Below, piece after piece: positions 12,327 to 14,974 of a stretch of DNA of 39,189 nt. Source of the DNA: a virus. Taxonomy: Duplodnaviria; Heunggongvirae; Uroviricota; Caudoviricetes. A program made the position numbers and the translations under genes. The DNA is taken from IMG/VR virus record IMGVR_UViG_2703718862_000013. One strand, written 5' to 3'. Below the pieces are notes generated by a model. It worked only from the letters and a program-made list of their open reading frames with translations, was not told the origin of the DNA and did no database searches. The stretch's first letter is position 1. The number at the start of each line of letters is the position of its first letter.

Positions 12327-14370
12327 AGTTCCCTCCGTTCCAGACGTTCACATCCAGGCCATGCTGTGCGGTATCATCCACATCAATACTGCGCGCCCGC
12401 CAGCCTTCAGGGGCCACAAGCTCTACCCGTGCGGCGGTTTTCGCGGTGGCCTGTCCGCCGTTTTCGTCACTGCTGCCACGCAGTTTCTGCCAGGCCTGCG
12501 TCAGCCAGCCCCCCAGATAATCACCGAGATAGCTGCCCACTGTGGAACCAATGGCAACCCCGACCGGACCGGCAGCCGCCCCCAGCGCGCCACCGGCGAT
12601 ACTTCCGGCAAGGGAACCCACGGCACCGGCTTTATCGGCTGCACTGGCGCTGCTGTCCAGCAGTACAGGAGCCGCCATGGCACCGGCCCACAGGGCACCC
12701 CCACCCAGCCGACCGGCACCACGGAACAGCCCGGCAAAACGCCCCAGCCCCATGCGGTTTCCGGCCGCCGAAAGCAGACCACCGGCACGGCTCATCATAC
12801 GACCGAAGAAGCCCTGTTTACCGGCGCTCTCCGCCAGCTGCTCACCGGCGGTCACGACAGTCGTGACACCCCGCCCGCGTCCGGGGCCGCGTTTTTTACG
12901 GTCGCGCACGGTTTTGCCGTCACCGCTGACCACCACATCCCCGCCGCCTGAGGCCAGGCCACCCGCAGGCCAGTTGGTGACCAGCACGGGCTGAACGGCA
13001 GCAGGATTTACCCCGGTAAGGAAATTCAGGAAGCGGCCAGCGCGTCCGGGCTGCGTTCCCGGCACAGTGGTCTGCGGTTTGCGGAAGGGCGACGTCAGCA
13101 CGGAGGTCATCGCCATACCATAGCGTAAGGGGGTTGCGCCGAGACGTAATGCTCCCGCCCCCGCAAACCTGAGCACCTTCAGCGCGCGGGAGGCGAGATA
13201 CATATACATCAGGTATTTTGCGGCGGTCTGCGCCCCCTGACCAATACGATCCAGTGCATCGCCATAACCGGCGTCGCGCAGTGCCTGAAGCGTTTCCCTG
13301 ACTTTCTGAATGGCACGGTAAAAGCCGGTTGCAGCGTCTCTGGCATACTCGAATCCCTGATTCAGGGCCGAGGCCGTCTGTGTGGCCAGCTTATCCTGTA
13401 AGCCGCTTTTCTGTGCCGCATCAGCATAATCCAGGAAGCCTTTCAGGCTCTTTTTCAGACTGTCAAACGGTCCCTTTGCCATCACTTCACGGGCAAACTG
13501 ATCCCAGACGTCGCCCATCATGGACGTCATTCCCGTCCAGGAATTCATGGCGTTTTTCTGGGCACCTTTTGCCTGTTCGGCCATCACCTGAAATAACAGG
13601 CGAATGCTGTCCGGCCCCAGTTTTCCTTTTTCGCCTTTCTCACGGATGAGCTTCTGGTTTACGCCCAGCTTATCGGCCAGTAACTGGTAAACGTTAATCC
13701 CGTATCCGGTCAGAATATTGGCGTCCGCTGCCTGGATACTCTGGCGGGCAAACATCTGTTTGAGTTGCAGGGACGCACCCTGTGCATCTGACAGTGACCA
13801 GCCGTGATAGCCGCCCTGATCCTGAAGCATGGTAATAAAGCGACGGGCTTCCCTGTCACTCATGCCAAACCCGCGACTGGAGGCGTATTCCTGCATAACC
13901 CCCGCCAGCCCCCAGGTGGTGTCTTTGGCGTTCTGTACTGCCCAGGCTTTCACTGCTTCCGTTTTTGCCTTATCGCCATGATTAATGGCGTTGAGACGCA
14001 GAATATAGTTCTCCATCTCTGCGGCCGGGCGGATAAAGGCTTTATTAAAACCGTAGACCGCAGCCCCTCCCGCCAGCATCCCGTAAAGGTTGCTTATCCG
14101 CCCGATGGTGCCGGTAATGCTGCCCTGCAGGCGGTCAAAATCTGACGTTACCGTGCGGATGCTGCCACGAACACCGGCAAGCGTTCGCTGCATACGGGAG
14201 CCGACAAGTTCTGTTTCCTGACCGGCCCGGCGGGCTGCATTTCCAAGACCACCCAGGCCTGTCCTGCCGGAACGGGAGAACGCCCCCAGCTCCTGTGACC
14301 ACTGGCGGGATTTGGCGGAAATATTGCCGAGTAAATCGACAATCAGGGAGGCTTTCAGGTTTTTTGCCAT
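12313..14370 (-). CDS. N: Tail tape measure protein
   Basis: 685 aa, Ala/Gly-rich with predicted long helices; between chaperone and baseplate genes. Confidence 0.85.
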   Translation of the reverse strand: MAKNLKASLIVDLLGNISAKSRQWSQELGAFSRSGRTGLGGLGNAARRAGQETELVGSRMQRTLAGVRGSIRTVTSDFDRLQGSITGTIGRISNLYGMLAGGAAVYGFNKAFIRPAAEMENYILRLNAINHGDKAKTEAVKAWAVQNAKDTTWGLAGVMQEYASSRGFGMSDREARRFITMLQDQGGYHGWSLSDAQGASLQLKQMFARQSIQAADANILTGYGINVYQLLADKLGVNQKLIREKGEKGKLGPDSIRLLFQVMAEQAKGAQKNAMNSWTGMTSMMGDVWDQFAREVMAKGPFDSLKKSLKGFLDYADAAQKSGLQDKLATQTASALNQGFEYARDAATGFYRAIQKVRETLQALRDAGYGDALDRIGQGAQTAAKYLMYMYLASRALKVLRFAGAGALRLGATPLRYGMAMTSVLTSPFRKPQTTVPGTQPGRAGRFLNFLTGVNPAAVQPVLVTNWPAGGLASGGGDVVVSGDGKTVRDRKKRGPGRGRGVTTVVTAGEQLAESAGKQGFFGRMMSRAGGLLSAAGNRMGLGRFAGLFRGAGRLGGGALWAGAMAAPVLLDSSASAADKAGAVGSLAGSIAGGALGAAAGPVGVAIGSTVGSYLGDYLGGWLTQAWQKLRGSSDENGGQATAKTAARVELVAPEGWRARSIDVDDTAQHGLDVNVWNGGNYGLY

Positions 14371-14373
14371 GGG

Positions 14374-14568
14374 TTACTGCTTCGTTCTGAGAATTTTTTC
14401 GGTCTGTCGGCAGTGCCGGTAAAGCTGCGATAAGGGGAGGTTAAGCGCCCACTCCGGGCCGCTTTTTGTCACCATCCCCAGCACAATTGCGGCTTCTTCA
14501 ATCTGATCCCGGCACTGCATCTGGTCGCCCCCGTTCAGCGACCAGCTTTCCTGCCATCGCGGAATCAA
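14374..14568 (-). CDS. Frameshift extension of tail assembly chaperone
   Basis: Overlaps 3' end of chaperone in the -2/+1 frame; ends 4 nt before tape-measure start; G-run in overlap. Confidence 0.5.
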   Translation of the reverse strand: MIPRWQESWSLNGGDQMQCRDQIEEAAIVLGMVTKSGPEWALNLPLSQLYRHCRQTEKILRTKQ

Positions 14569-14974
14569 GCAGGCTTACCGCCGCCATCAGACGGGAGAGA
14601 TCGCGCTCGCTGAGCTGTCCGATCTGACGCGGAGATAATGGCCCCTCAATCTGGCCGACAGCGGCAATCTGACGGCGCAGCAGCGCAATGCCGCGCAGTG
14701 CCGGAGAGGCCACCAGAACCGGACCGTTTCGGGTTTCCATAAGACGCTCGGCCTCACTCTCCGCATCAATGCTGTCTTTCGCCGTCAGTTCGCGGAAGGT
14801 GACGCGGTATTCACGGGATTCACCGAACGGCAGGCCGTCGAGCAGATCCACATAGCCGTTCACCAGCTGTTCAGCCAGCCCGGCGGTGCGGGGATCGCCG
14901 TCCTCAAGTGCATCCCGGATAGCCTCCATCACGGCCTCGTCAGAAACCGCCGTTTTTTTCTTACGTGTGGTCAT
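14498..14974 (-). CDS. Tail assembly chaperone (Mu gp41-like)
   Basis: Acidic protein between tail tube and tape measure. Confidence 0.6.
   Translation of the reverse strand: MTTRKKKTAVSDEAVMEAIRDALEDGDPRTAGLAEQLVNGYVDLLDGLPFGESREYRVTFRELTAKDSIDAESEAERLMETRNGPVLVASPALRGIALLRRQIAAVGQIEGPLSPRQIGQLSERDLSRLMAAVSLLDSAMAGKLVAERGRPDAVPGSD

Follow-up and report, generated by a model that had tools for sequence, protein, structure and literature searches.

The analysed window is a stretch of 39,189 nucleotides from a virus of the Caudoviricetes (IMG/VR record IMGVR_UViG_2703718862_000013). It is a Mu-like prophage that carries MuA (Mu transposase C-terminal domain), MuB, Portal_Mu, Gp37 and DUF2635, together with the N-terminal domain of a DNA-circularisation protein and a GpP-like baseplate protein. 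A contractile-tail module is located on the minus strand, where the sheath gene (16865–15363, assigned by Pfam) is followed by the tail tube gene (15354–14989; Pfam Tail_tube PF10618, E = 5.2e-30), the tail assembly chaperone gene (14974–14498) and the tape measure gene (14370–12313). The latter encodes 685 residues and is assigned both by Pfam (TMP_3 PF20155, E = 6.8e-18) and by the RefSeq annotation of an identical E. coli sequence. The chaperone gene, the analogue of Mu gp41 and lambda gpG, lies directly downstream of the tube gene and is an ORF of 158 aa (~17.0 kDa) that ends at the TGA at 14500–14498. This region is 100% identical to the chromosome of E. coli STEC2018-607.

The chaperone aligns with the complete Pfam profile Gp41_Mu PF23746 (profile positions 1–107 of 107) at 111.2 bits, against a cut-off of 27, and with an E-value of 3.3e-32. 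It also matches PHROG 508 'tail assembly chaperone' (E = 1e-41) and, under that family's cut-off in Pfam, Phage_TAC_7 (E = 5.5e-5). Its identity to Mu gp41 is 47–50%. The placement of the gene between the tube and tape measure genes is that of a frameshift pair of the lambda G/GT type. Elsewhere in the window, in the head/tail-joining region, the minus-strand ORF 18506–18081 contains a perfect hexanucleotide tandem repeat, (CGGCTT) × 13.8 with 100% matches (18146–18228), which translates into an (Ala-Glu)n tract of a 141-aa protein; the tract is likely to be length-variable.

The ORF 14568–14374 overlaps the 3' end of the chaperone gene in its −2 frame, which is equivalent to +1 (14974 − 14568 = 406 = 3 × 135 + 1), as the original prediction had claimed. 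The prediction had also placed the end of this ORF 4 nt before the tape-measure start, and this distance is correct: the TAA at 14376–14374 is separated by three nucleotides (CCC) from the tape-measure ATG at 14370–14368. The frame is open not just from the TTG at 14568 but from position 14574, the preceding stop in that frame being located at 14577–14575. This TTG was rejected as a start codon, as it is merely the first one met mechanically and is not conserved, relatives having TTG at other codons or none at all. Both frames are open only within 14574–14501, a segment bounded by the stops at 14577–14575 and 14500–14498, and a shift between them must therefore fall inside this overlap. The second frame thus shows the layout of the second member of a lambda G/GT-type pair, with a 3' overlap, no conserved start of its own, and an end at the tape-measure start.

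The sequence ACGGGGGCGA is found at 14534–14525 on the minus strand, within the overlap. It holds the candidate slip site CGG GGG CGA (14533–14525), in which the zero-frame codons are CGG (14533–14531), GGG (14530–14528) and CGA (14527–14525). The run of five Gs occupies 14532–14528, with GGG 14530–14528 as the predicted P-site codon and CGA 14527–14525 as the next zero-frame codon. This is the in-phase arrangement of a Mu-type site, and it allows GGG-to-GGG re-pairing two bases in the 5' direction. The predicted −2-frame extension, or 'T' segment (14529–14374), comprises GGC 14529–14527, 50 more sense codons and the TAA at 14376–14374. The predicted fusion, complement(join(14374..14529,14528..14974)), has 200 aa and a mass of ~22.0 kDa, and its junction would read ...LVAERG-GDQMQCRDQIEE...RTKQ.

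The G run also permits a perfect −1 re-pairing, which would lead to a dead-end product of 168 aa (...AERGATRCSAGIRLKKPQLCWGW). The length of the −1 frame is not conserved among relatives, in which it reaches from 1 to 32 codons beyond the zero-frame stop. Because of this possible re-pairing, −2 is not the sole slip to be expected on five Gs.

The corresponding site of phage Mu

An identical GAACGGGGGCGA is present in Mu, with the same phase and at a distance of 26 nt from the gp41 stop. Xu, Hendrix and Duda reportedly described a programmed −2 frameshift in Mu gp41 / FS-gp41 in 2004. In GenBank AF083977, a second, two-piece CDS (Mu_56) bears the note 'verified -2 translational frameshift' (PMID 15469818). 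The Mu −2 product that we reconstructed (...TQERGGEWLRC..., 188 aa) is identical to UIW09302.1 and to Swiss-Prot P0DJY4, 'Probable tail assembly protein FS-gp41'; the reconstructed Mu +1 product has no match in a collection of 15 billion proteins. Decoding in Mu is described as using −2 frameshifting (PMC5009743), with an efficiency estimated at ~2.2% (PMC3498833), and the Mu 10-mer alone gives a shift of 14% in a purified cell-free system (bioRxiv 10.1101/2025.10.02.679949). The details of the Mu site presented here are taken from the GenBank note, the Swiss-Prot sequence and secondary citations. A full-text literature search with the slip sequence returned nothing relevant.

The prophage and Mu loci are alike in most respects. 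The chaperones belong to the same Pfam family, the order of the sheath, tube, chaperone and tape measure genes is the same, and the identical slip sequence lies in the same phase 26–32 nt before the zero-frame stop. The extension continues for 51 residues past the slip in both phages and stops just before the tape-measure start; the two extensions share 53% identity (E = 2e-22). The loci differ in that the prophage chaperone has ~30 extra N-terminal residues and merely ~47–50% identity to gp41, and in that the overlap upstream of the slip is 45 nt long in the prophage and 12 nt in Mu. Mu also lacks two features of the prophage, an AUG three codons past the slip and a local hairpin that covers the site. 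The Mu shift has been verified experimentally; that of the prophage copy is predicted from the sequence.

The original prediction of a Mu-like programmed shift in a tail-chaperone gene is thus supported by the Gp41_Mu family assignment, the slip sequence of Mu, the AF083977 annotation and the match to P0DJY4. The −2/+1 geometry is not unusual, the site being an orthologous copy of the one already known in Mu.

Conservation of the slip site and the extension

Relatives were collected from annotated phages, IMG/VR and one-per-species genomes, and yielded 144 analysable loci with 88 distinct sequences in the relevant region. The genome scan for homologues was based on a 5-sequence alignment, an 8-sequence alignment being too divergent. 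An in-phase NGG/AAG-GGG-CGN motif followed by the extension is kept in 84 of the 88 distinct sequences, in the forms CGGGGGCGA (72), AAGGGGCGA (8), CGGGGGCGC (3) and AGGGGGCGA (1). The four exceptions comprise sequences with only four Gs (L041, at two loci, and L042), one broken at the end of its contig (L059) and one truncated (L064). Hosts of the relatives include Escherichia, Salmonella, Citrobacter, Klebsiella, Kluyvera, Brenneria and Serratia as well as Pasteurellaceae, Vibrio, Shewanella, Alteromonadaceae and Desulfobacterota. Chaperone (gp41) identity falls to ~34%. The extension reaches 37–47 codons past the zero-frame stop in every motif lineage, except for two from Pasteurellaceae that have a longer zero frame and reach 31–33 codons, and in all of them its end falls in a range from 14 nt upstream of the tape-measure start to 11 nt within the tape measure gene.

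Dozens of alternative-frame ORFs of similar size are found across all frames of this G+C-rich region, so that the ORF 14568–14374 taken alone is not beyond chance; it is conservation that puts the frame beyond it. Over the 36 codons that lie outside the chaperone gene, read in the −2 frame, the variable sites are distributed over codon positions 1, 2 and 3 as 17, 10 and 30, and third-position variation is dominant in this frame only. Synonymous changes account for 54% of the changed codons in the −2 frame vs 17% and 6% in the other two. With respect to a 91%-identical relative (L013), the extension of the window has 8 synonymous and 2 non-synonymous changes. By this substitution pattern, the extension is genuinely protein-coding and subject to purifying selection in the shifted frame, and in that frame only.

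The codons of the slip site are conserved to an unusual degree for this gene. Across 22 lineages, the first codon is CGG in 20, AGG in 1 and AAG in 1, the second is GGG in all 22, and the third is CGA in 19 and CGC in 3. Other invariant Gly or Arg columns of the chaperone use four or five codons each, e.g., GGC 13, GGT 6, GGA 2 and GGG 1. According to a rough count over long ORFs, GGG makes up 6–28% of Gly codons in the background, and CGA and CGG/AGG make up 2–24% and 5–47% of Arg codons, respectively. Part of this conservation is confounded, because the third G of GGG and the A of CGA also code in the −2 frame (for Gly, then Asp or Glu). Since the CGA conservation is confounded in this way and CGC is found in three lineages from Desulfobacterota, a role for a 'slow CGA' is not independently supported.

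The overlaps of the 22 lineages intersect on only ~17–20 nt around the G run, with 9 nt remaining 5' and 11 nt remaining 3' of the GGC codon. The shortest overlaps reach 9 nt on the 5' side (L036, L060, L062) and 11 nt on the 3' side (L036, L038, L052), and the segment common to all is essentially NNN-CGGGGGCGA-NNN. On this comparative evidence, the shift is localised to the G run. The run at about 14525–14534 had been proposed as a candidate slip site; the convergence of the overlaps and the identical nonamer in Mu bear this out, and the junction is refined to GGG 14530–14528.

Several lineages depart from the common motif. A sister lineage (L026–L032 and L040, from Citrobacter braakii and IMG/VR prophages; also the Salmonella proteins P0065–P0091) has AAG GGG CGA, where four Gs permit only an imperfect −2 re-pairing to AGG; the overlap and the conserved extension are kept. 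In three metagenome-assembled genomes of Desulfobacterota (L044, L054, L062), CGG GGG is followed by CGC and the −2 frame reads Gly-Ala. A Smithella genome of the same kind (L064) has seven Gs directly before TGA, at a locus that is cut off. In L041 (Kluyvera CP022114), L042 (Erwinia tracheiphila), L146 (GCA_900449035, P0002), P0098 and P0101, the chaperone and the extension stand in one frame with a run of four Gs. These 'hard-wired' zero-frame fusions were rejected as natural variants and are most likely homopolymer miscalls, given the second indels in two of them: in L041, another run of five Gs, located in the extension, is likewise reduced to four, and the chaperone gene of L146 carries a further indel. 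A phage with a real hard-wired fusion would be expected to be defective.

Mechanism and direction of the proposed shift

We consider it very probable that the locus undergoes a Mu-type programmed ribosomal frameshift that produces a 200-aa fusion beside the 158-aa protein. This reading is favored because of the geometry of the two frames, the homologues of both parts in Mu (gp41 and FS-gp41), the conservation of the site and of the extension, and the localisation to the G run. In the proposed mechanism, most ribosomes would read the chaperone gene as far as the TGA at 14500–14498 and yield the 158-aa protein. In a minority, tRNA-Gly would occupy GGG 14530–14528 in the P site, with CGA not yet decoded, and would slip two bases in the 5' direction, where perfect re-pairing with the overlapping GGG 14532–14530 can occur. 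Decoding would then restart at GGC 14529–14527 and yield the 200-aa fusion, which would end 3 nt before the tape-measure start. A slip of a single tRNA in the P site is the simplest reading. That the shift would be ribosomal, of the −2 type and of an efficiency of a few per cent is carried over from Mu.

The same frame would be entered by a +1 slip, in which tRNA-Gly in the P site leaves GGG to re-pair with GGC and one base, the C, is passed over; the product would have 199 aa and a single Gly at the junction (...AERG-DQMQ...). The sequence by itself does not separate −2 from +1, and the reporter assays of a 2025 preprint could not tell them apart either (10.1101/2025.10.02.679949). In the large Salmonella/Citrobacter lineage with AAG GGG CGA, moreover, the −2 slip (to AGG) re-pairs no better than the +1 slip (to GGC). 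Against +1, the identical Mu site is annotated as a verified −2 shift, the deposited Mu product contains the extra Gly (ERGGEW), and its +1 form is absent from the databases. A further argument comes from the two Gs at the 5' end of the run, within the Arg codon CGG. They are not read in the −2 frame, yet the codon is CGG or AGG in 21 of the 22 lineages, well above its share in the background, and such a constraint would serve no purpose in a +1 slip. That these unread Gs are conserved points to leftward re-pairing and argues for −2 over +1. We regard +1 as unlikely.

Conserved stimulatory RNA structure of the dnaX or coronavirus type was rejected, both the folds and the covariation being against it. 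The single-sequence fold of the window was not significant (z = −1.19), and an 8-sequence consensus fold had a covariation term of −0.73 with merely three pairs showing compensatory changes. When the 60 nt that follow the site were folded lineage by lineage, no common hairpin position was found among the 22 lineages; strong hairpins are present in this segment solely in L036, L037 and L050, at differing positions. The lack of a conserved stimulatory structure fits with the activity reported for the Mu 10-mer on its own. The prophage has a 9-bp hairpin, CUGGUCGCU-GAACGGG-GGCGACCAG (14545–14521, minus strand; −16.2 kcal/mol), that encloses the slip site. As it is lineage-specific and absent in Mu and most other lineages, it was rejected as a part of the conserved mechanism.

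Translation of the extension as a free protein, instead of or besides the fusion, would begin at an AUG in the −2 frame (14520–14518, minus strand) that is located 7 nt 3' of the G run and opens a 48-aa product, MQCRDQIEE.... The run would then serve as a Shine-Dalgarno element: its predicted duplex with the anti-Shine-Dalgarno sequence has −8.6 kcal/mol and is well spaced, the 48-aa protein is called on numerous contigs, and PHROG 12783 collects such ORFs. ATG or GTG is present at this position or at the preceding codon in 9 of the 22 lineages, and in 13 of the 22, Mu included, no ATG, GTG or TTG with a Shine-Dalgarno-like element was found near the junction. The codon is CTG in Mu, for which the fusion is verified, GCG in the 91%-identical L003/L013, GAG in L026 and AAG in vibrio and Shewanella phages, and the position varies as M/L/I/V/A/E/K across the family. 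In the prophage itself, the 9-bp hairpin (−16.2 kcal/mol) pairs the last two Gs of the run together with CGACCAG and leaves the other three Gs in its loop. The in-phase run, the −2-frame Gly-Gly-Asp/Glu and the overlap are all conserved, and a separate gene needs none of them. Independent initiation is highly improbable as the main route and may make a minor contribution. Translation of the downstream ORF in this manner, which the original prediction had named as refuting the shift, is thus argued against by the comparative data.

The change of frame could also arise in the transcript, where RNA polymerase on the five Gs would add two Gs or lose one and ribosomes would read straight through. 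Homopolymer runs can cause slippage of this class, which is reviewed in PMC5009743, and the transcriptional and ribosomal levels were not told apart in the cell-free experiment with the Mu 10-mer (10.1101/2025.10.02.679949). Nevertheless, the site is described as one of ribosomal −2 frameshifting (PMC5009743, PMC3498833). The run keeps a strict codon phase in 84 of the 88 sequences, which matters to a slipping tRNA and not to the polymerase. Productive transcriptional slippage in bacteria occurs on longer runs, typically of eight or more A or T residues, and five Gs are short. The likelihood of this route is very slight. Lastly, we give almost no credence to a chance open frame in G+C-rich DNA, with the 127 nt between the chaperone and tape measure genes as an untranslated spacer: spurious ORFs of like size are numerous on all frames and RefSeq/PGAP annotates nothing in this stretch, but the coding-type substitution pattern lies in exactly the −2 frame, the extension is homologous to that of Mu and to a PHROG family, and its length is constant from Enterobacterales to Vibrio and Desulfobacterota.

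Annotation and proposed roles of the two products

RefSeq annotates this gene pair on the identical E. coli chromosome with only the 158-aa 'phage tail assembly protein', after which a gap of 127 nt is left without annotation. In other records, the extension is deposited as a separate hypothetical protein of 48, 60 or 64 aa; the 48-aa version is found on 116 contigs and the 64-aa version, starting at TTG, on 6. The extension also matches PHROG 12783, of 'unknown function' (E = 4e-38). The free-standing 48- and 64-aa proteins and PHROG 12783 are probably the frameshift extension under a mistaken annotation. The 200-aa and 199-aa fusions of the prophage are both absent from the collection of 15 billion proteins. 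Members of 159 aa in the cluster of the 48-aa protein were suspected fusions and turned out to be ordinary short chaperones. Gene 41.5 of phage D108, like PHROG 12783, corresponds to this extension, there treated as a small gene in its own right. These annotations assume independent initiation, whereas the comparative evidence speaks for frameshifting; the start of D108 41.5 would be CTG, because position 1871 of the locus is CTG in Mu and D108 is identical there.

Xu et al. are said to have described, in 2004, a conserved tail-chaperone frameshift pair of the lambda G/GT type. The lambda slip site is G GGA AAG. The prophage pair resembles lambda gpG/gpGT and its analogues, P2 E/E' and TP901-1 gpG/gpGT, in its position between the major tail or tube gene and the tape measure gene, in its two products with a common N-terminus, and in a low-efficiency shift near the 3' end; the same division of labour between the G and T parts is expected. 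The systems differ in the shift itself, which is a −1 tandem slip in lambda and, as proposed here, a single-tRNA −2 slip on five Gs in the prophage. They also have no detectable sequence similarity, and the prophage tail is contractile, whereas that of lambda is non-contractile.

In these systems, the tape measure is bound by the G part and tube protein is brought in by the T part (PMC4493119, PMC5009743), and a permanently fused chaperone gene in TP901-1 results in non-infectious particles (PMC4493119). By analogy, the short and long forms of the prophage would be paired non-structural chaperones that maintain the tape measure in soluble form and bring in tube subunits. Following the lambda/TP901-1 paradigm, the short chaperone would be the form that binds the tape measure, and tube protein would be recruited through the T part of the fusion, with the ratio of short to long forms set by the efficiency of the slip, as for gpG/gpGT. 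The AlphaFold model has a mean pLDDT of 70, with values of 78–87 for residues 31–130 and of 51–59 for residues 141–200, which include the helical extension. In a search for resemblance of the G part to the spiral fold of solved tail assembly chaperones, Foldseek with this model against the PDB gave no match with E ≤ 0.001, and phmmer against PDB sequences returned nothing relevant, the best hit being a de novo designed protein (E = 0.24).

Zero-frame ribosomes terminate 127 nt upstream of the tape-measure start, and the extension stop is located 3 nt upstream of it. No Shine-Dalgarno sequence is evident for the tape-measure AUG (GAACGAAGCAGTAACCCATG; 14400–14368, minus strand), and translation from this AUG might be coupled to ribosomes that have shifted frame. 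A combined reading, to which we assign a low probability, holds that in the E. coli lineage the G run acts both as a −2 slip site and as a Shine-Dalgarno element for AUG 14520–14518. Both a fused T segment and a free 48-aa peptide would result, and tape-measure synthesis could be coupled to a minor stream of shifted or internally initiated ribosomes.

The site of this E. coli Mu-like prophage is genuine but an ordinary case, being an orthologous copy, with identical slip sequence, of a recoding site that was already known and experimentally verified. What is new is just the predicted fusion of a widespread E. coli/Shigella prophage lineage, which is unannotated in the records examined. The main value of the finding lies in annotation, and knowledge of the mechanism is unchanged. 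The comparative set lends sequence-level support to the −2 direction. It also provides a rule for recognising Mu-type sites, namely an in-phase NGG GGG CGN within ~35 nt of the chaperone stop (55 nt in two Pasteurellaceae lineages) together with a −2-frame extension of ~40–50 codons, which is valid from Enterobacterales to Vibrio and Desulfobacterota.
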